From an uncultured Bacilli bacterium (GTDB lineage: Bacteria; Bacillota_I; Bacilli_A; RF39; UBA660): a stretch of 64,000 nt of DNA. Position numbers and translations under genes: made by a program. The stretch is from the NCBI GenBank assembly GCA_947626695.1, contig CANQTE010000001.1:14-64013 (forward strand), read 5' to 3'. Positions 6,422 to 38,722 of the stretch are shown piece by piece (the stretch's first letter is position 1; every line of letters begins with the position of its first letter). The notes beneath the pieces were generated by a model that saw only the letters and a program-made list of their open reading frames with translations, did not search any database and was not told the origin of the DNA.

Positions 6422-8323
6422 CTAATTTTCAGCGACAAAACATATTCCTGATAATGATACTGCGTCAAAAGTAACATCATTGTTTAATGTTATTTGACCA
6501 TTAGATGCAACTTGTACCCAAATAAACATATCGCTACCATAACCACTTGCTAAGGCAAATCTATTGTAATTGCCTGCTGGCCTAAAACCAGATGGCAATG
6601 TTGCTATTGTTCTATTAGTTGTAGTTGTTCTACCAATTAAACCTCGCAAATAAACAACTCCATTAATCTTATAATACATAGGCCTATCTGCACTATATCT
6701 ATAATTGTAACCACTATTTAACGATAAAGTGCCACTTTCCATAGCTGTTTGATTATATAACTCCTGCACTCCTTTTAGTGCAAGGGTAGCTAAGGAATAA
6801 ACATTAATTTTCTTATGTTCTCCATCTTGGACTATTGAAGGCGTGTAATACCCATCAGATGGGACATCCTCCTCATTATCTGCAACTAAGCCTAATTGAT
6901 AAACTGGAAAACCAAAACTATCCTCATAACTATATTGAGCAATATCAATTCTTGCAATTTCTTCTAAAAAACTATCGGCATGGCTTAAATTTTCATAATC
7001 ACTTTTTAAAGCTGGAACTTCATACCGCTTAGCTTCTACTCCGCCATCTATAGTTGCACTAGTACTACTATAAAAAGAACCCAAACTATCAGGAAACGTA
7101 TTAACATTAAACATTGTTATACTGCCTGGTCTTATAAACATTGTATTTCCATAACTATCAGAAAAATGTATCTGATTAGAGCGAAAAGAAATTTGCTCTG
7201 TATCTGAAATTATTGAAAGATGTGGGTTATTCCCACCATCATCTTTTATGGTTACGTCCCCGTTTTCACTTAGAGTAAAGTGTTCACTTACAACGTTCAT
7301 TTTTTGCGTAGTTAAATCTATTGTTGTGCCTTCAAAACTAATTTTATCTGCTTTAATTTTTGCTTCTGACGTTCCATCATTATTTATTAATCCGATTATA
7401 GCCTCCAATGTAAAATCAGTGGCATTTAATTTTAGTGCTATTTCTTTTGATTGCACATCTAATTCAGAAGAAAAAGCTGTAAATTTGCCTTCTGTTTCTT
7501 CTTTAAATTCGGCAACAGATACATTAATATTACCTACATCAACTTTTAAACTTGATATTTCTGTATCATAATACTCATACTTTTCATTTGCAGTTTCAAT
7601 TATTTTTTGAGTAGTAGAGGTAACCTCACCTAAAATACTATCTCTTGTCGTTTCAAGTTGAACACTAGTTGCATATGTTGCACTAACATCTTCTTTAAAC
7701 TGATTTAAAACTGCCTCAACATTTTTAGCATAATCATCATTGGAATAATCAGTTGCTTTTATCCAATCTACTTCATTAAAATCACCTTCCGTTCTTTTCG
7801 CTCGACATCTATATAAATCTTTATCTTCTTTAATCCATAAATCTCCTACTTCATAAGGTGGTATAGGTTCTGTTACAAATACTTGCCTTTTTTTATCTGC
7901 TGTATCTTGTGCTGAATTAGCAAGTGCTAGAGCTTCTACTACATCTGTATCTTTTATTTCTATCCATTTAAATACATTATCATTTAGGGAAAATCTATAA
8001 GCATAACCAGTATCTTGGTCATAATATAAATCTCCCAAATGATTATTCTTAGTAACATCATCTAGCCACTCATTTGCAGGAGCATTTTCAAGTGTTGGAA
8101 TACCTTCAAAAAACCAAGTAGTTATATTTCCATCTACTTGGTCTTGAAGTGTTTTTAAATCTTTTGTAACAGCATCAGCAAAATTTTTAATAAGTGTATC
8201 TGTACTATTCAAATTTCTCTCTAAAGAAGTAATAGTTTTTCTATCTTTAACTAAATTATTTAAATTATATCTGCGTATTAAATCTTCAGCAGTAATAGCT
8301 TTACTATAATCATTATAATTCAT
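6422..8323 (-). CDS. Tail spike or receptor-binding structural protein
   Basis: 633 aa, downstream of the giant virion protein, with a Gly/Ser/Thr-rich beta C-terminus. Confidence 0.4.
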   Translation of the reverse strand: MNYNDYSKAITAEDLIRRYNLNNLVKDRKTITSLERNLNSTDTLIKNFADAVTKDLKTLQDQVDGNITTWFFEGIPTLENAPANEWLDDVTKNNHLGDLYYDQDTGYAYRFSLNDNVFKWIEIKDTDVVEALALANSAQDTADKKRQVFVTEPIPPYEVGDLWIKEDKDLYRCRAKRTEGDFNEVDWIKATDYSNDDYAKNVEAVLNQFKEDVSATYATSVQLETTRDSILGEVTSTTQKIIETANEKYEYYDTEISSLKVDVGNINVSVAEFKEETEGKFTAFSSELDVQSKEIALKLNATDFTLEAIIGLINNDGTSEAKIKADKISFEGTTIDLTTQKMNVVSEHFTLSENGDVTIKDDGGNNPHLSIISDTEQISFRSNQIHFSDSYGNTMFIRPGSITMFNVNTFPDSLGSFYSSTSATIDGGVEAKRYEVPALKSDYENLSHADSFLEEIARIDIAQYSYEDSFGFPVYQLGLVADNEEDVPSDGYYTPSIVQDGEHKKINVYSLATLALKGVQELYNQTAMESGTLSLNSGYNYRYSADRPMYYKINGVVYLRGLIGRTTTTNRTIATLPSGFRPAGNYNRFALASGYGSDMFIWVQVASNGQITLNNDVTFDAVSLSGICFVAEN

Positions 8324-11300
8324 TACCAGTACACTCTCCCATCTCTTATTACAAATCCTAATTCTGTTAATATTTTTGTTTTTTCTTCTATTGTTAGATT
8401 TTTATTATTTATATATTCTGCGATTTCTTTATTATAATCATTAAATGTTTTATAATATTGCTTTATAAAGATAGCTCTCTGGGGAATACTTAAATTTAAA
8501 GAATTAATATATTTGATAGTCTCGGTTTTATCATCATCTGTATTATCTCTAATATTTTGAAGTTCTGTTTTATACTTTTGATATTTATCATAAGTTGTTA
8601 TATTAGTTATCACAGAATATTTATCTGGGTAATCAAGAGAATAATCTATCTCTTTTTTATTAGTATAATAATCAGATATTTTACCACCATTTGAAACATA
8701 TTCATTAATCTTATTATAAGTATTAGCCATAGATAAGCCTAAAGTTTCTTCTCTTGCTTTATTATAAGAATAATTTACAACATCATTTATAACACTTGCT
8801 TTATCTTCATTTGACATACTTGTATATTTACTATTTTTAAGTAAATCTTTCATAGTATTCTCTACTATATTACCAGAGATTTTTTGGAAATTAGCTCTAT
8901 CTTTAGAATTAAATTCTAGTAAGTTACCATCTTTATCTTTATATTTATATTCTGGAACTCTTGGCATAACTGATTTATCACCAGTTGCTTTATATACATT
9001 ATATATTTCTTCTGCACCCTTACTTATGTTTTCTGTATTTACATTTGCAGGATTTAAGAAAACATTAAATATATTATTTTTACCACCATATTTCTTTACT
9101 TCTCTACCCATAGTATCAACCGTAGGTGCAAGAGTTTTACTAACAAATGGTATTTTTGCTTTAACACTATTAATAGCGGATTTGATAGGCTTATCATATT
9201 CAAAAGATGTTCTTTGAGTTCCATCAACCATATCCGCGATTTGCTTTGAAAAAGTTGGAACTGCACGTGCTGGAAGTTCTAATATAGCTTCCTGTATGCC
9301 TGAAACAACTCCATCATTATTTGAAAATACTGTTTTTATACTTTCAAAAAAAGATTGTTCCAATAAAATACTTCCTGCAGTATTTAATGAACTTGTAGCA
9401 TTTTCCAATAATGTAGCATTTTCTTTTTGCTTTTGAACGATATTAGCCATTATTGATAAAGGCGCCGCAATTGGTTGAGCCCAATCATAAGTAAATGACT
9501 TATTTCCTATTTTTATTGAATAAGAACTTATGCCTAAAGTGTTTTTCATAAAATTAGATACATCTTTATCATCATCAGCTTCACCACTTATAACACCTGA
9601 TTTAGCTAGTGCATATCCTAAGACATATAACATTGTTCCAGCTGTTGCTTTTCCTAAGTCTTGAACAAATTTATGTTGCATTTGGGGAGTAAATTGTCCA
9701 TTAGTTAATGATTTTCTTAAATTATTACCTTCTACTAAAGTATTAATCATACCTACTGGAGAATAATCAACTATTGCTTTAGTTAAGTTAGCGGGTGTTT
9801 TGGCAAATGGTATCAAAATATCTCCTACACCATAACTGTCCATACCAGGTAAATGTATTTTATTTAACATACGTCTTATATCAAGTACAAATTTAGTGTA
9901 AGAGTTATTATCGTTCCAAGTTCTTTGCAAGCTTTCAGTTCTTGCTATATCTAACATATCTTGAGTAATTTCAGTAGTATTATTAAGTACCATTTGATTT
10001 TGTAAAGAATTTTCAAATGCTGCCTGACTAAATACTCTATCTCCAACGTCCATAATATAATTAAGCATACTTTCTACTTTATTAAGACTTTTGCCCATAA
10101 GAGTTTTATCATTAAAGTTTTTGCCTTCAGTAATTTCAAATCTATTGCCTTTCATATCTTTAGTATTAATACCTTTTTTATAATCATTAGTTGCCTGATA
10201 TGCTCCCTCTTTAATACCTTTTAGCATTGCTTTAATATTAGTTTTTCCAGTTGTTCTAACACCTGTTTTTTTAGATATAATTTTATCAGCATAGTTTGAG
10301 AATAAATCACTAAAAGAGTTTATTGGCATTATTAAAGCATTACCTGCAACGTTTCTTACTTGTGTTTTAGGATTAAATAACATAGATATACGCATCCATG
10401 ATTTTATTCCTGCACCTTTAACTGGTGGAAGTTTATCAGTCATAAGTTTTTGAATTTCGGCAAGTTTAACTCTTTTATCGTAGCCATCTTCCATAGTTGA
10501 TATTTCTTTCATGTTATCCATGATAAATTGTACTTCATCTGGTGTTAAGTCAAAATCCTCTCTATGTTTGTCTATCCATTCTTTAGATTTATTTTTTATC
10601 ATATAGTCGTACGCTTCTTGAAGCTCACTTTGAGCATATTTTACCATGCCTTCAGGTGTCATACGTTCCAAGATATTAAATGCTTGAACTGTTTGACCAG
10701 CAGTACTTCCAATTCTTCGCATAGTTTTAGCAATTTCAACCATACTATCATAATCTTTATTATCAGCATACTGTTTCATTAATATCCAGCCTTCTGCTAT
10801 ATCAACTGCTGTTGGATTTTGTTTCATTTGACCATTTTTATCTGGTGCAAATCTATTTTGCCAGTTTAAAGTTTCAGATAATCCACCATTATTAATTTTT
10901 TCAAATGCTTTTTCTAAGCTTTCTTTATTAGTAACTTTATCATAATATTTTACTTCTTCCTCAGATAATATTCTATTTTTTTGCTCATCATTTAACATAT
11001 TTACTTTATTTTCAATATTAGAAGCAAATCTACTATCTCCATCACTAGTTGTATTTCTATTAACAACTGGTAGTTTAGGAGTAGTATTTGCGTCTTCTTT
11101 AGTTAGTTTAGATATTTCTAATGGATTTAAAGTTTTATTATTTATATTGTTATTTACTGGTGGTAAGTTTATTTTATTTACATCTTTTGATGTAGGTAAT
11201 TTAATATCACTCATATTTGTTCTTGTACCAGATGTTTTATAATGTTTATCTAAGTATTCTTGCCATGAATTGCTGTTCTCGGAATATTTGGCATCAACTT

Positions 11301-14067
11301 TTGCATATTGTCCCTGCGTTGGGTCAATCCATGCAACATCTGTTAAATTAACTTCTTTTGAGTACACTTTCCCTGTGCCAGAATAACTTTCAGCTTCCAT
11401 TTTAGAAGGAGTTACAAATATTCCCTGCTCTATTGGATAAGAACTATACACTGTGATTTTACCAGTATTTAATGCTTCATTAACTATATCAGCACCATAA
11501 TCTGGGTCAAAGTTGTTGTTTTCCCAATCTTCCCAATCACTATCTTGCAATGTTTCTTCAAATGTTTTTACATCATCAATAGTTCGTATCCAAGTTGCAT
11601 TTTCATTGCCTGCTGGATTTGTTTTTAATACTATATCTAGCTGTTGTTGTTTTAACGTATTATTTTGGCTATTTTGCATAGAGTATTTAGTAGGTAATTT
11701 GACATTTTGGCTAGATTGTGGTATACTTTCAGTACTGGAATTACTAATGTTAGAGTATTGTACTCTTTCATTTAAGGTAGTTCCTTTTTTTGTGTATATT
11801 TTTTTAAAATTATTATTTTGTATATATTTTGTAATATTTTTTCTACCATATGCTGATTTAATTTGATTTTCTTCAATATATACATTATTATATGTTCCTT
11901 TACCATCTATTCGTATAGGTACCACTATATTATTACCCTGTTTATCTAATATTTCAGTAATTATTAAAAATTCATTTTGTGAAGTTTTATATATTTCTGT
12001 TGGATTATCTAAACTATCTATAACATTAATCAATGTTTCCTTCCCTAGTCCATGATAATTTACATTTTTTTCATACATATTGCTATTTTTTGCTTCTAAT
12101 TCGGTTAAAATAGTACTTTTTACATGTTTTGCTGTTATCAACATTGGCAAATCTTTTACACCATTATTTACCAAAATTTCAGGTGTAAAATCTCTAGCTT
12201 TAACTTGATTATTACTTTTATATTTTCCTGTTAACACTTCGTCAATCTCATTAGAGAAATTTCTACTAATATGGTAGTTTGCATTATTATTTAAATTATT
12301 AACAGCTTGTTCTTGAGTTGTATTTCTATAAGCAGTCTCCCATTTATTTTTCAAATCTCTAACAAATAATGCTTCATGTGAATTACCAGTTATTTTATTT
12401 GCTAGTGATATTATTGAATTATATATTCTTTTAAAGATACTAGGCTTTTCTAAAGATAAATTATTAATAAATTCTTGATTACCAAATAACTCTCCTGAAA
12501 TATCTGCTAAAACTTCACTAGATACGTCATTTGTTCTATAAGTTGTTTGTAAATCTTTCAATGCTACTTTAAAATCATCATGTTGACTTGCAAAGTTTAA
12601 TACTAAATCCTTCATTTCTTGAGTTTCAATCGCATGAGTTACTTCATGAATAATTAAAAACTCTCCTGATTTAGGAGAATTTGGATTTAATCTTATTTCA
12701 ATTTCACCATTATCTAACGTTTTTATTTGACCATTTACAGTCTTTCCTTCATCATTGACAATATTACTATCAAATATAACATTATAATCTTTATCACTTA
12801 TAATTTTTGAGATATTATCAATAAAGTTATGAGTTTGCTCACTATTGTTAAAATATTTACTAGCAGATTCACGTAAATTATTTACTTTAATGTTATCACT
12901 TTTTTGATATTGATAAACATTAGTAGGCTGTGAATTTTCAAGATTGCTCATACTATTTTTTACATTATTTTGTGATATTAAGTTTTCATTAATAGGAATA
13001 TTTGTATTTGGTAAGGGTAAATTAGTATTATTTCTATTATTTCTTGTTACCATATTAACAGTTGCTGGTAGGCCACCTACTGCACCTGCTAAAGTCCCTG
13101 CAAAGAAGTTTTCCCATAATTCTTCTTTATTAAATTTTTCTGCTAAACTAGGTGCATCTTTATCGACAACATTTTTAAAATAATCTAAAGCATGAGTTCC
13201 AGCATAATTAAGTAAGTATGATGCAATTTCTTCTGTTCCTTCACCTACTGCTTTAATACCTGCAGTTGCTAGTGTTTTAGCAAGTCCACTTTTCATTTTT
13301 TTAGTGACACCTTTTACTATTGCATCATCTAAATCTGACCCACCTAAGCCAAATGTTCCAAAAAGACTTTCTGATACACCTTCTGCTACTCCACCTAAAG
13401 CACCATTTAACCATACTTGCCAATCTTTAGCGCCTTTTTGAGTTGCCTCAGACATACTATTACTTGCACCACTTATCACAGATGTAACAGGCATATTAAA
13501 TGTCTTACCACCTATATTTAGAGGAATATTGCCATTAGCTCCTAGTAAGGCACTAGAAGTTACACCCATAGCATACATATTACCTATTGAATTAGCAACA
13601 CTATCTAATTTTTCACCCATAACAGAGTTTTTATCAACTATATTATCTACTGGCTTAAATACTTTATTAGTTAAACTTTCTGAAGCTGCTTTTCTTACTT
13701 CATCTGCATAATTTTGTATTCCTTTTGAATTAAATACTTTACCAGTCCAATCAATTACTTGTGCTCCTGCATAAGCTCCTAAATCTCCGATAGACTCGCC
13801 TGCACTTACTACACCTTTAGCAAGATTAGTTCCTATATCTCCTGCTGTTCCAAGTACAGTTTTAGTAAAATCACCAAATTGATAACCATCAGAAAAGGCT
13901 CCACTTTGGAACCATGTATTTTTTGTTTTATTTTTCTTTTTATTTTTAGTTGTTTGTTGCGGTATTTTTGCATCAAATACACTTTCAGCTTGTCCCTCAT
14001 AAGGAACTTTTCTATTATTAAAAGCTATATCTATACCGTATTTAGATACATCGCTTAATTTCACCAT
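8323..14067 (-). CDS. Giant 1914-aa virion protein with a Gly-rich N-terminus and an HExxH zinc-metallopeptidase motif
   Basis: The N-terminal GxxGG-rich region resembles tape-measure or ejection proteins. IIHEVTHAIE is an HExxH site. It is the largest gene in the structural module. Confidence 0.45.
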   Translation of the reverse strand: MVKLSDVSKYGIDIAFNNRKVPYEGQAESVFDAKIPQQTTKNKKKNKTKNTWFQSGAFSDGYQFGDFTKTVLGTAGDIGTNLAKGVVSAGESIGDLGAYAGAQVIDWTGKVFNSKGIQNYADEVRKAASESLTNKVFKPVDNIVDKNSVMGEKLDSVANSIGNMYAMGVTSSALLGANGNIPLNIGGKTFNMPVTSVISGASNSMSEATQKGAKDWQVWLNGALGGVAEGVSESLFGTFGLGGSDLDDAIVKGVTKKMKSGLAKTLATAGIKAVGEGTEEIASYLLNYAGTHALDYFKNVVDKDAPSLAEKFNKEELWENFFAGTLAGAVGGLPATVNMVTRNNRNNTNLPLPNTNIPINENLISQNNVKNSMSNLENSQPTNVYQYQKSDNIKVNNLRESASKYFNNSEQTHNFIDNISKIISDKDYNVIFDSNIVNDEGKTVNGQIKTLDNGEIEIRLNPNSPKSGEFLIIHEVTHAIETQEMKDLVLNFASQHDDFKVALKDLQTTYRTNDVSSEVLADISGELFGNQEFINNLSLEKPSIFKRIYNSIISLANKITGNSHEALFVRDLKNKWETAYRNTTQEQAVNNLNNNANYHISRNFSNEIDEVLTGKYKSNNQVKARDFTPEILVNNGVKDLPMLITAKHVKSTILTELEAKNSNMYEKNVNYHGLGKETLINVIDSLDNPTEIYKTSQNEFLIITEILDKQGNNIVVPIRIDGKGTYNNVYIEENQIKSAYGRKNITKYIQNNNFKKIYTKKGTTLNERVQYSNISNSSTESIPQSSQNVKLPTKYSMQNSQNNTLKQQQLDIVLKTNPAGNENATWIRTIDDVKTFEETLQDSDWEDWENNNFDPDYGADIVNEALNTGKITVYSSYPIEQGIFVTPSKMEAESYSGTGKVYSKEVNLTDVAWIDPTQGQYAKVDAKYSENSNSWQEYLDKHYKTSGTRTNMSDIKLPTSKDVNKINLPPVNNNINNKTLNPLEISKLTKEDANTTPKLPVVNRNTTSDGDSRFASNIENKVNMLNDEQKNRILSEEEVKYYDKVTNKESLEKAFEKINNGGLSETLNWQNRFAPDKNGQMKQNPTAVDIAEGWILMKQYADNKDYDSMVEIAKTMRRIGSTAGQTVQAFNILERMTPEGMVKYAQSELQEAYDYMIKNKSKEWIDKHREDFDLTPDEVQFIMDNMKEISTMEDGYDKRVKLAEIQKLMTDKLPPVKGAGIKSWMRISMLFNPKTQVRNVAGNALIMPINSFSDLFSNYADKIISKKTGVRTTGKTNIKAMLKGIKEGAYQATNDYKKGINTKDMKGNRFEITEGKNFNDKTLMGKSLNKVESMLNYIMDVGDRVFSQAAFENSLQNQMVLNNTTEITQDMLDIARTESLQRTWNDNNSYTKFVLDIRRMLNKIHLPGMDSYGVGDILIPFAKTPANLTKAIVDYSPVGMINTLVEGNNLRKSLTNGQFTPQMQHKFVQDLGKATAGTMLYVLGYALAKSGVISGEADDDKDVSNFMKNTLGISSYSIKIGNKSFTYDWAQPIAAPLSIMANIVQKQKENATLLENATSSLNTAGSILLEQSFFESIKTVFSNNDGVVSGIQEAILELPARAVPTFSKQIADMVDGTQRTSFEYDKPIKSAINSVKAKIPFVSKTLAPTVDTMGREVKKYGGKNNIFNVFLNPANVNTENISKGAEEIYNVYKATGDKSVMPRVPEYKYKDKDGNLLEFNSKDRANFQKISGNIVENTMKDLLKNSKYTSMSNEDKASVINDVVNYSYNKAREETLGLSMANTYNKINEYVSNGGKISDYYTNKKEIDYSLDYPDKYSVITNITTYDKYQKYKTELQNIRDNTDDDKTETIKYINSLNLSIPQRAIFIKQYYKTFNDYNKEIAEYINNKNLTIEEKTKILTELGFVIRDGRVYW

Positions 14068-17616: not shown

Positions 17617-17992
17617 CTTTATATATATCTTTAATATCTTTTATCTCTTCTTCAAGCTCCTCTAAAGTACACATTTGATATTGTGGAACAATAAATCCTT
17701 CTTTTTCGTCCCATATTAAAATAGTTCCTTCTGGTACTTTTACTTTAATGGTACTTTCTTCTTCGATTTCAAATTTACCTGCTGTTTCTTTTCTTTTAAT
17801 GGTAGTTACAAGAGTTAAATCTTTAAGTTCTTGTTTTACAACTCCATTTTCTGTTTGCTCTGTAAATTTAGTATCTTTCATAATTTTTTTGCCATAAATT
17901 TGTTTTAAATTAGGTTTTAATGTATAGTATTCTATCTTTTCTGTCATAAATATTCTTTTCCTTTCATTTAGTCGTGTTTGTAAGAATTGCAC
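17573..17992 (-). CDS. Head completion or connector protein
   Basis: Small ORF immediately downstream of the capsid gene. Confidence 0.3.
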   Translation of the reverse strand: MQFLQTRLNERKRIFMTEKIEYYTLKPNLKQIYGKKIMKDTKFTEQTENGVVKQELKDLTLVTTIKRKETAGKFEIEEESTIKVKVPEGTILIWDEKEGFIVPQYQMCTLEELEEEIKDIKDIYKGDKDDTKGNEAKNI

Positions 17993-18018
17993 TTACTTAA
18001 ACTTTTAACACGATATTA

Positions 18019-18036
18019 AGAGGTTTTTATACCTCT
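18019..18036 (-). terminator. Hairpin after the capsid module
   Basis: AGAGGT-ttttat-ACCTCT inverted repeat overlapping the stop codon of the extension. Confidence 0.35.
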
Positions 18037-18344
18037 ATTCATCTGCGGTTACTTCAATACTAAATTCAGCACTTTCTTTTTCTTTACTGTTTTTATCAGT
18101 AACCTTTACTTTTGCTGTGTAAGTTTTTTCTTCTGTAAGAGCCTCTGCTAATTTAACCTTAGCTTCTTCCTCTTTAAACTTAGCAGCATCTGTACCAGTT
18201 ATTTCATAAGTATATGGTTCTTCACCACCATCAACTGAGATACTAGCAACTTCTTTATCAAGAGTAGCTTCTGATTTCTTAATTGATGCAGCAGTAACAC
18301 TAACTGTTACAGAGTTAATTTCGCCCTTTTCGGGCTTACTAGGG
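18035..18344 (-). other. +1-frame Ig-like (Big_2-type) C-terminal extension of the capsid, candidate programmed +1 frameshift at CCC-UAG
   Basis: The frame-0 gene ends CCC TAG. The +1 frame (CCT AGT AAG CCC...) is open for ~102 codons. It encodes PEKGEINSVTVSVTAASIKKSEATLDKEVASISVDGGEEPYTYEITGTDAAKF..., which is Ig-like. There is no ATG, and a hairpin terminator follows. Confidence 0.5.
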
Positions 18345-19172
18345 TGTTAATCCAGCTTTCTTAGTTTTAAGAACAACTATTTCTTCTTTACGAGTTAATA
18401 GTCCACCAAAAACATAAAGTCCTTTTAAAGCATCTTCAAAAGCATCTTGTGGTCTATATGCTTCTACTTTATTGATTTGTTCAGCAAAAGCAATAGCATG
18501 CTCAGTTCTTAAGATGTTAAATACATCTGTTTCATCATGTGGAAGTAAGTTTTCAATGGTGATGTTAGCATTACCATATTTTCCAACAATACCTTTCTTA
18601 GCCATCTCAACATTGTTAGTTAATAGCTCTGTAATAGATGGTCTAATATATTTGTAATATGATGGGTCAACTTCTAGCCAATAGTTTTCACTAACTTTAC
18701 AATTATTACTATAAAGAGCTGCAAAGCCATCTTCGATATGTTCTATCGCATTAGCTTTTGATGGTGTGATACTATCAATTGCTTTAATGTCCTCATTAGT
18801 TACACCAGTTTTAACGATTTCTGCGACGTATTTATCGCCTTCCTCTGATAATGCAATAGCTCCTTCTTTAGCTGTTGCTTCCATAGCACCTGGAACACTT
18901 TGTGCTTTTTTAACATCATCTAATGCAATGTTAAAATAATAGAATTGGTCCATTTTTAAAGTCATATCAGTTGCACTAATATATTCTTTATCAATTTTTG
19001 TACCAGGTACATATTTTTTAATAGTTGGTCTTACTGCATTTAAGATTTTTACCTCCTTTGCATTTGGAGTATCTTTTTCATATTTGAAATCACAGTGATT
19101 TCTTAAGCTCGTAATTGTTTTTAGAGCTCTTTCATAGGCTTTATGCCAAATAGTTTGCATAGCGCCGTCCAT
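18339..19172 (-). CDS. Major capsid protein (frame-0 product ending ...KKAGLTP*)
   Basis: It follows a scaffold-like acidic protein and a portal. Its size and position are typical of a capsid gene. Confidence 0.55.
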   Translation of the reverse strand: MDGAMQTIWHKAYERALKTITSLRNHCDFKYEKDTPNAKEVKILNAVRPTIKKYVPGTKIDKEYISATDMTLKMDQFYYFNIALDDVKKAQSVPGAMEATAKEGAIALSEEGDKYVAEIVKTGVTNEDIKAIDSITPSKANAIEHIEDGFAALYSNNCKVSENYWLEVDPSYYKYIRPSITELLTNNVEMAKKGIVGKYGNANITIENLLPHDETDVFNILRTEHAIAFAEQINKVEAYRPQDAFEDALKGLYVFGGLLTRKEEIVVLKTKKAGLTP

Positions 19173-38593: not shown

Positions 38594-38646
38594 GAAAAAA
38601 CTCCCTAAAATAGGGAGATTAAATCCACATGGCGGAGTAGAGAGGA
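38594..38646. repeat. attR core, overlapping the tRNA-Ser 3' end
   Basis: Perfect 53-bp copy of 12..64. It overlaps the 3' end of the minus-strand tRNA at 38630..38646. Confidence 0.85.
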
Positions 38647-38722
38647 TTTGAACCTCCGCGCCAGCATTCGCCGACCTAGATCCTTAGCAGGGACCCCTCT
38701 TCAGCCTCTTGAGTACTACTCC
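38630..38722 (-). tRNA. tRNA-Ser (anticodon GCU), long variable arm
   Basis: The reverse complement reads GGAGTAG...CUGCUAA...GGCGCGGAGGTTCAAATCCTCTCTACTCCGCCA. It has an acceptor stem, a T-arm GGTTCAAAT, the anticodon loop and an ~93-nt length. Confidence 0.8.

Follow-up and report, generated by a model that had tools for sequence, protein, structure and literature searches.

The major capsid gene of a presumed prophage in an uncultured Bacilli bacterium appears to be extended by programmed +1 frameshifting. The gene lies in a stretch of 64,000 nucleotides of contig CANQTE010000001.1 (assembly GCA_947626695.1), which was analysed at its full length and is called the window hereafter. It ends with CCC TAG, and from that point the +1 frame stays open for 102 codons encoding a putative immunoglobulin (Ig)-like domain. 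An earlier note, made from the letters of this DNA alone, had proposed a programmed +1 shift at CCC-UAG, producing a minor capsid species that bears the domain. This core proposal is strongly supported by the comparative evidence below, and we estimate at about 0.8 the probability that a slip from CCC to CCU, with the stop codon in the A site and probably aided by a hairpin, yields a minor 42-kDa capsid species displaying the Ig-like domain. Two aspects were absent from the earlier note: the hairpin placed right after the stop codon, and the portability of the module. The features concerned are as follows.

19172..18339, minus strand: major head (capsid) protein gene, 277 amino acids (aa), frame 0, ending ...GLTP then TAG
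18347-18339, minus strand: putative shift site ACA CCC TAG (ACA 18347-18345, CCC 18344-18342, TAG 18341-18339)
18336..18338, minus strand: 3-nt spacer, TAA in the window, where it is also a second in-frame stop
18323..18335, minus strand: predicted hairpin GCCC-GAAAA-GGGC, beginning 3 nt past the stop, with a 4-bp GC stem
18343..18035, minus strand: +1-frame extension, 102 codons from CCT (the last one GAA, 18040-18038) plus TAG 18037-18035
18343..18035, minus strand: make-up of this extension, a P/E/K/G-rich linker (PSKPEKGE) followed by one putative Ig-like (PKD/He_PIG/cadherin-like) domain

The 277-aa protein matches the profile of PHROG 267, 'major head protein', with an E value of 4.5e-29. 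In tblastn it is 26-32% identical, over 86-97% of its length, to annotated major capsid or head proteins of phiSASD1 and of mycobacteriophages. Its gene follows an acidic scaffold-like gene, itself preceded by the portal gene (P22_portal in the homologous locus L081; loci are cited by L numbers throughout). By its profile and its position in the head module, we take this protein to be the major capsid (head) protein.

The 3′ end of the capsid open reading frame (ORF) reads AAA GCT GGA TTA ACA CCC TAG TAA, with the previously reported CCC TAG at 18344-18339. The CCC codon directly precedes the in-frame stop and overlaps a second proline codon, CCT (18343-18341), in the +1 frame. This frame has a TAA at 18349-18347, then reads CAC, and then CCT AGT AAG CCC GAA AAG GGC GAA ATT... 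It is open over 18343..18038, i.e. the ∼102 codons without ATG that had been announced, and it also lacks GTG and TTG (none of the three occurs up to 60 codons from the shift site). The peptide TLDKEVASISVDGGEEPYTYEITGTDAAKF, quoted in the earlier note, is found in it. Based on the composition of the strand (26.7% G+C, 9.5% of random codons being stops), 102 open codons would arise by chance with a probability of 3.7e-5; +1 run-ons following the 49 long ORFs of the window have a median length of 9 codons. The list of ORFs of the window (at least 40 aa) has no entry in the frame of the extension. The predicted fusion would be 378 aa long and weigh 42.0 kDa, compared to 31.1 kDa for the capsid protein alone, and its junction would read ...AGLTP-SKPEKGEINS... 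CCC is a rare codon in the window, with 25 occurrences among 16,435 codons (1.5 per 1000), versus 13.6 per 1000 for CCT. The capsid gene contains a single CCC, which is its last codon, a position where CCC is found in 1 of 47 long ORFs.

We propose the following sequence of events. Most ribosomes would terminate at UAG and release the 31-kDa capsid protein. In a minority of them, the peptidyl-tRNA-Pro sitting on the rare CCC in the P site, with ACA in the E site and a slowly decoded stop codon in the A site, would slip one base forward and re-pair with CCU (18343-18341), and translation would continue in the +1 frame. The product would be a 42-kDa capsid protein ending with a flexible linker and an Ig-like domain. 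This long form would co-assemble with the short one, so that the capsid would display sub-stoichiometric Ig-like domains, most plausibly acting as weak glycan or mucus adhesins. Two other ways of passing the stop codon were rejected. Reassignment of the stop codon does not fit, as TAA follows TAG in the window, three of the variants described below use TAA, and the long ORFs are intact under code 11. Transcriptional slippage was discarded as well, the junction being devoid of any homopolymer run.

Comparison with relatives shows where the extension begins and ends. In 80 relatives from IMG/VR (48-77% capsid identity), the capsid gene stops ∼5 codons earlier and is devoid of the module; none of them ends with CCC. 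In these relatives the capsid gene runs directly into a terminator hairpin, then into a conserved TTTTATCGTGTTAAGA motif, and in the window this motif is placed after the extension. Closer relatives also lack the extension (L086, with 91% identity, L087 and L088); the L086 capsid has the same length as that of the window, and ends AGT GCA TAG. Given these module-less relatives and the place of the motif, the ∼320-nt module is best described as an insertion between the last codons of the capsid gene and its terminator. As a separate observation, two of the IMG/VR loci without the Ig module, L026 and L034, have +1-frame run-ons of 144 and 149 codons through the terminator, which we assume to be the frame of the next gene.

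Eight loci with capsids 91-99% identical to that of the window (L081-L085 and L090-L092) have kept TTA ACA CCC TAG, the 3-nt spacer, GCCC-N5-GGGC and the +1 extension. Gene callers begin the extension of these loci at a TTG, in place of which the window has AAG. Further contexts, in which the upstream gene is of another kind, came from searches with the extension itself:

L089: upstream gene, PHROG 212 major head protein, unrelated to that of the window (BLASTP E 1.4); junction GGA ACA CCC TAA aga GCCCCTAGTGGGC
L102-L104: upstream gene, PHROG 247 / Gp13-like capsid, after a DUF4355 scaffold gene; junction ACA CCC TAG cga GCCCGAAGAGGGC
L105: upstream gene, head protein of the PHROG 10 BLAST group; junction ACA CCC TAG caa GCCCGAAGAGGGC
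L106: upstream gene, 111-aa PHROG 909 gene between the scaffold and Phage_cap_E genes; junction ACA CCC TAG tgt GCCCGAAGAGGGC

The 111-aa gene of L106 is located where genes for decoration proteins usually lie. In L102 (1980-3029) the capsid gene is called as one ORF of 349 aa, and in L103 (730-1768) the same gene is called as 264 + 62 aa; the two junctions are identical, and the split is probably an assembly indel in a low-coverage contig.

A scan of GTDB genomes with a DNA pattern added nine loci, all from rabbit-gut 'Lapin' Bacilli metagenome-assembled genomes (GC 28-32%). The same scan matched four Solirubrobacteraceae loci (L107, L110, L111 and L116), which we rejected as probable chance matches: their GC content is 0.65-0.70, they contain a small ATG-initiated ORF, and they are unrelated to the cassette. 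What was matched in them is the conserved leader ACACCCTAGGAGGCCCMCAATGGGCGAG of this small ORF (MGEKTDKISGRAKQ...). Exact cassette patterns had zero matches in IMG/VR, and neither the region, the cassette nor the extension had a match in 50,697 deposited phage genomes, whether in nucleotide or protein searches. The cassette seems confined to ENA assemblies of the rabbit-gut type and to the 'Lapin' genomes.

In total, the survey yielded 16 distinct junction variants in 24 contigs from many independent assemblies. All 16 variants, 10 of which were found by protein search, independently of any pattern, keep ACA-CCC-TAR (TAG in 13, TAA in 3), the 3-nt spacer, GCCC-N5-GGGC and the +1 frame. The comparison in related phages that the earlier note had called for thus gives a uniform answer: the CCC-stop site and the +1 frame are present in every variant, and in none is the downstream frame disrupted. 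The genes upstream fall into eight groups that BLAST does not link, all of them head proteins, belonging to PHROGs 267, 212, 247, 909, 10 and 544. As cargo, the modules carry a single Ig domain (102 aa), a pair of them (196-221 aa), or one Ig domain joined to a PHROG 31690 domain (230-234 aa); L117 combines the capsid family of the window with two Ig domains.

The boundary of the shared segment is sharp. When nine contexts were aligned in register, mean pairwise DNA identity per 9-nt bin was 0.28-0.37 upstream, which is the background for such AT-rich DNA, and 0.94 from the A of ACA CCC on. This jump of identity at ACA means that the shift site is the 5′ end of the shared module, and that every host protein receives its last two residues, Thr-Pro, from the module. 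In 8 contexts out of 8, the upstream ORF enters ACA CCC TAR in frame, an outcome with a probability of ∼(1/3)^8 if the phase of insertion were random.

The extension might also be translated on its own. By translational coupling, ribosomes terminating at UAG would melt the hairpin, expose its Shine-Dalgarno-like 3′ arm and reinitiate at AUU or AUC (or at TTG or GTG where present), giving a free Ig-like protein of ∼10 kDa, bound non-covalently to the capsid. In 15 of the 16 variants, a GAGG-like motif does precede AUU or AUC by 5 nt, gene callers treat the extension as a gene of its own whenever a TTG, GTG or ATG is close by, and free-standing Ig-like capsid decoration proteins exist (T4 Hoc; a capsid entry of phage N4 is the best fold match of the extension, see below). 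However, initiation at AUU or AUC is very inefficient, and in L106 this place is taken by CCA. Seven junctions (the window, L109, L112, L113, L115, L117 and L118) contain no ATG, GTG or TTG from the upstream +1 stop to 60 codons downstream. In the remaining junctions start codons are scattered, from -17 to +5 codons. By comparison, the real genes of the prophage all have a Shine-Dalgarno motif and an ATG, and the distant stand-alone homologues of the extension (P0130, P0156) do have a strong ribosome-binding site, an ATG and an N-terminal region of their own.

The start-less variants are nevertheless constrained as proteins. Among them, the ratio of nonsynonymous to synonymous substitution rates (dN/dS) lies at 0.06-0.10 in close pairs and at 0.19-0.57 in distant ones, compared to ∼0.7-12 in the other two frames. 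For close variants overall it is 0.06-0.15, in the +1 frame only. In addition, extensions of 102-234 codons are free of stops and indels despite synonymous divergence up to a pS of ∼0.5. These figures indicate that the extension is under purifying selection, even where a canonical start is impossible. Reinitiation also leaves unexplained the invariant rare CCC and the ACA at the edge of the module. Moreover, a lone Ig domain without anchor would have to bind six unrelated families of head proteins; that it does so unaided seems implausible to us, and covalent fusion would solve the problem of attachment. Finally, a structurally similar site in the 936 group of lactococcal phages yields a fusion protein on Western blots (PMC4759559). 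We therefore consider that independent translation of the extension is unlikely, and favour the +1 slip.

After the stop codon, the spacer always measures 3 nt, without constraint on its letters (taa, ctt, aga, cga, caa, tgt, ggc, tga or cac). The hairpin GCCC-N5-GGGC is predicted in every variant, with energies of -6.5 to -10.1 kcal/mol; its stem is invariant, and its loop is always 5 nt long with varying sequences (GAAAA, GAAGA, GATGA, CTAGT). Four bases of the stem occupy third codon positions and are fixed as G, C, G and C, whereas elsewhere in the extensions third positions are G in 6% and C in 5% of cases. The codon preceding the stem is AAG, TTG, GAG, GTG, GCG or ACG, its first two positions varying and its G constant. 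These fixed wobble bases and this constant G, in otherwise AT-rich third positions, point to a constraint on the stem at the nucleotide level. The 31-nt cassette comprising these elements is ACACCCUAGUAAGCCCGAAAAGGGCGAAAUU. Other kinds of stimulators were looked for and rejected. A pseudoknot would require the loop to pair with sequence further on, and such pairing is not conserved: in some variants GAAGA has a possible partner, CUUC, ∼50 nt downstream, whereas the window and L089 do not offer this pairing. For an upstream Shine-Dalgarno-like stimulator, as in prfB, there is no conserved motif, and the upstream sequences are unrelated between contexts.

The 5′ arm of the hairpin contains a second CCC of the +1 frame (18334-18332), which brings in a different route to the same frame. 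In a translational hop, the peptidyl-tRNA-Pro would leave the CCC at 18344-18342 and land on that at 18334-18332, 10 nt downstream, skipping the stop and two codons, and the junction would read ...AGLTP-EKGEINS... Both CCC codons are invariant and their 10-nt spacing is constant, even though CCC accounts for 0 of the 59 proline codons found in the extensions outside the cassette. Bypassing in T4 gene 60, touched on in PMC3082878, likewise involves a stop right behind the take-off codon and a stem-loop close to it; the gap there is 50 nt long. On the other hand, the second CCC is equally well explained as one half of the stem. Efficient hopping needs a nascent-peptide signal, which could hardly be conserved when the upstream proteins are unrelated, and the landing position is CCC or GCC in Q54 and the 936 group, so that the 936 phages lack a matching landing codon. 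Re-pairing by one base, from CCC to CCU, is the event documented at similar sites in SPP1 and the 936 group, and the hop is less parsimonious than such a slip. We regard the hop as slightly less probable still than reinitiation, and retain the one-base slip.

Lastly, there might be no recoding at all, the extension being an untranslated remnant of a gene that was once in frame or separate, or the frame break an assembly or sequencing error. Most of the assemblies are indeed low-coverage metagenomes (2-10x according to the contig names), and every gene caller stops the capsid protein at 277 aa. Against this, the same frame break is found in all 24 contigs and all 16 sequence variants from independent assemblies, no indel-prone homopolymer run lies at the junction, and the 102-234 codons without stops or indels are under strong purifying selection in the +1 frame only. 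This explanation, the least probable of all, is effectively refuted.

Several points weigh against the proposed shift. Every argument is comparative, for the phage of the window as for all members of the cassette family. In E. coli, bare CCC_stop sites generally give at most 2% frameshifting, so that utilised sites usually have stimulators, CCC_UGA being especially shift-prone (PMC3082878); the yield of the shift in the window could therefore be very low. The GAGGG or AAGGG arm of the stem resembles a Shine-Dalgarno sequence, and its place 5 nt before AUU or AUC in 15 of the 16 variants might allow separate initiation. The DNA pattern that yielded six of the 16 junctions had the site and the stem fixed, so that their invariance is partly built in. 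As for the hairpin, SPP1 and PSA tsh function without one of this kind, and the covariation count over the junctions from protein searches plus Q54 gives 100% pairing with a single compensatory pair, contributed by Q54. Since 78 of 500 shuffles equal this count, i.e. the covariation is not significant, a stimulatory role is something that we infer: the hairpin probably raises the efficiency of the shift.

The nature of the added domain was examined with profile and structure searches. Taken alone, the extension gives sub-threshold Pfam matches to K319L-like PKD, Big_13, Big_5 and He_PIG, and a weak match to PHROG 2973, 'Hoc-like'. A HMMER search with the extension found 289 homologues at E≤1e-3, mostly large surface proteins with tandem repeats. 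Homologues with E values of 1e-46 to 1e-9 exceed the cut-offs of Pfam for K319L-like PKD, He_PIG, cadherin and SprB. Big_2 (PF02368) was never matched, neither by the extension (E≤1) nor by ten homologues. The AlphaFold2 (AF2) model of the extension, made from three sequences, is rich in beta strands, with a pLDDT of 71. Foldseek searches with this model, whose confidence is moderate, gave no match at E≤0.001; the weak matches obtained (best E 8e-3) are all Ig-like sandwiches, the top one being the phage N4 capsid entry 9e99_J. We conclude that the domain is probably Ig-like, of the PKD/He_PIG/cadherin type, with moderate evidence as to the fold. The description of the domain as a Big_2-like Ig fold thus holds for its Ig-like part and not for Big_2, the families found being PKD, He_PIG, cadherin, Big_13 and SprB-type ones. 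The classes of phage Ig-like accessory domains distinguished by Fraser et al. in 2006 are reportedly I-set, FN3 and Big_2.

Homologues of the Ig domain also occur outside of this arrangement. Two of them (L126 47-757 and L127 2501-3694), 41-46% identical, are ordinary stand-alone genes with a strong ribosome-binding site, an ATG and an N-terminal region of their own, and one of the two sits in a 111-kb phage-like contig. With the alignment of the Ig domain, searches of IMG/VR and JGI metagenomes returned only distant (∼40% identity) in-frame multi-Ig proteins, on contigs of 80-370 kb (one of 16 kb).

Taken together, these results make us lean, with some reservation, towards a broader view: the recoding signal and the display domain (ACA-CCC-UAR, 3-nt spacer, GC hairpin, Ig-like domain) would form a self-contained mobile cassette, which could be added at the 3′ end of whichever gene encodes a capsid-surface protein, and would immediately give sub-stoichiometric display without disturbing assembly. 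It would have spread among at least 8 unrelated head genes, of six PHROG families, in phages of rabbit-gut Bacilli. If this is true, one recombination event is enough for a phage to gain an adhesin domain on its surface while its capsid still assembles, and the cassette allows ideas on the origin of frameshift-expressed Ig domains to be tested directly. It would also provide a natural, minimal and context-independent +1 element for Gram-positive hosts, of use for phage display and for tuning fusion ratios. Finally, it would mean that such modules are systematically mis-annotated by gene callers, which either make separate genes of them, with arbitrary starts, or overlook them.

The region that follows the extension contains a further hairpin.

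18036-18019, minus strand: predicted hairpin AGAGGT-ATAAAA-ACCTCT, 6 bp, after the stop of the extension (fold prediction)

Its position is homologous to that of the capsid terminator of the relatives, in which a hairpin and TTTTTATCGTG come directly after the capsid stop. Its tail, TAATATCG, is poor in T, and a scan for the terminator consensus called no intrinsic terminator at this hairpin. The extension had been said to end at a hairpin terminator; the hairpin is present, and with its degenerate T tail the name of terminator is not warranted. Further on, at ∼17970-18014 on the minus strand, lies a conserved intergenic element, ATCGTGTTAAAAG...GTAAGTGCAATTCTTAC.AAACACGAC, which is also found after the capsid gene in L001-L088. 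It is predicted to form nested hairpins (z = -2.0), and relatives with capsid identities as low as 48% still have its TTTTATCGTGTTAAGA. The element may serve in the regulation of late genes or in RNA processing.

As to the wider setting, a 53-bp exact direct repeat is found at 12-64 and 38594-38646 of the window, its second copy overlapping the end of a tRNA-Ser(GCT) predicted by ARAGORN (38630-38722, minus strand). This suggests the integration, at a tRNA-Ser gene, of a prophage that makes up ∼38.6 kb of the window; the DNA from ∼38.7 kb on would be host chromosome. A scan of the whole window at the Rfam gathering threshold detected no family, not even tRNA, which leaves the tRNA-Ser call unconfirmed. 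The structural module of this ∼38.6-kb prophage includes an ORF of 1914 aa (8323-14067, minus strand), unusually large for a phage of such size.

How does the site of the window compare with known systems? Sites of the CCC-stop type, CCC.UAG included, are already known, and so is the addition of accessory domains by frameshifting. The window alone adds one case to them, in which a prophage of an uncultured Bacilli bacterium has the site at the end of its capsid gene and the added part is a PKD-like Ig domain. What may be new is that a recoding signal of ∼25 nt is physically part of a transferable module found on many unrelated head genes of a single gut ecosystem. According to PMC5009743, citing Fraser et al., mobile Ig domains land out of frame by chance, and frameshifting is selected afterwards. 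Compared with the view stated there, the cassette differs in that the frameshift site travels with the domain.

Ig-like capsid extensions produced by programmed frameshifting have been described for gene 10B of T3 and for Lactobacillus phage A2 (PMC5009743), and the gene 10B type of arrangement is the basis of capsid-surface phage display (PMC13370021, K1F). As proposed for the window, T3/T7 gene 10B and A2 give a minor capsid species with a C-terminal extension starting from the end of the major capsid gene. They differ by the use of -1 frameshifting on a slippery heptamer, without shifty stop. T4 Hoc and the N4 decoration protein also place Ig-like domains on the capsid surface, but they are separate proteins, with a start codon and a capsid-binding domain of their own, whereas the extension of the window has neither a start codon nor a domain for anchoring.

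The +1 sites with a CCC codon read as follows in deposited records:

SPP1 17.1: GCT CCC TAA; no hairpin after the stop (-0.3 kcal/mol)
PSA tsh: ACA CCC TGA; no hairpin after the stop
PSA cps: ACA CCC TCC, a sense codon; pseudoknot according to PMC5009743
Q54 orf23: ATA CCC TAA tga CCCTGACGAGGGG; hairpin of -8.5 kcal/mol
936-group phages: CAY CCC TAA ggc GCCTGACGAGGC; hairpin of -6.2 kcal/mol

In Listeria phage PSA, the shifts in cps and tsh were documented by protein sequencing, cps giving a long and a short capsid protein (PMC5009743). The heptamer ACA CCC U of the window is identical at both PSA sites, and tsh has a stop codon in the A site. The extension of tsh is only 24 aa long and is not Ig-like. 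In cps, unlike the window, the A site holds the sense codon UCC, a pseudoknot is present, and the shift takes place 8 codons ahead of the stop; this extension is not Ig-like either. We rejected a site of the cps type for the window, where the A site holds a stop and only a simple hairpin is predicted, without conserved pairing of the loop with downstream sequence. The precedent of PSA, invoked by the earlier note for both its capsid and tail genes, therefore applies to the tail gene and not to the capsid gene. Better precedents than cps are CCCUAA in SPP1 (PMC6316719), CCC_UAA in Q54 (PMC3082878) and CCC.UAG in the 936 group (PMC4759559).

In SPP1, gp17.1* arises by a +1 shift at CCCUAA, from rare CCC to frequent CCU; the short and long forms are in a ratio of ∼3:1, so that about a quarter of the subunits carry the added 87-aa FN3 domain, which belongs to the Ig-like superfamily and is non-essential (PMC6316719). 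SPP1 differs from the window in that the protein is that of the tail tube and not a capsid, that the site has neither ACA nor a hairpin after the stop, and that the domain is FN3 and not PKD/He_PIG-like. Besides Q54 (CCC_UAA), tail genes of Listeria phages (tsh of PSA, A118 and A500) have CCC-stop +1 sites (PMC3082878).

The closest documented analogues are the MTP-TpeX site of the lactococcal 936 group and the Q54 site. In PhiC0139, a member of the 936 group, a fusion of MTP and TpeX made at CCC.UAG was detected by Western blot and immunogold labelling (PMC4759559), and records of this group are annotated as joined 'MTP+TPX' coding sequences. The 936 group (PhiC0139, PhiL.6, Phi17) and Q54 resemble the window in several respects: UAG or UAA comes right after CCC, the shift (a proposed one in the window) leads to CCU, and past a 3-nt spacer lies a short GC-rich hairpin whose loop is rich in purines. 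The Q54 hairpin, CCCU-GACGA-GGGG, has its stem at the same positions as that of the window, with a swap from G-C to C-G; in that of the 936 group, GCCU-GACG-AGGC, the register of the stem is slightly different. The literature on these sites in PMC4759559 and PMC3082878 makes no mention of the GC hairpin found 3 nt after the stop. When Q54 (L122, 13752-13900) is compared with 936-group phages (L123-L125), BLAST homology of the tail-extension modules starts exactly at the shifty-stop CCC. The differences with the window are that the extended protein is that of the tail tube and not a capsid, that the cargo is TpeX or a receptor-binding protein, and that the codon before CCC is AUA or CAY and not ACA. 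What is added, as presumably also in the cassette, is an accessory surface domain that probably binds carbohydrates and is carried by only some of the subunits. The +1 peptide follows P-[KNS]-x-P-[DE]-E-[GA] both in the Q54 and 936 sites and in the cassette, with PNDPDEG in Q54 and PNEPEEG in L119. The cassette appears related to the shifty-stop modules carried by lactococcal tail genes.

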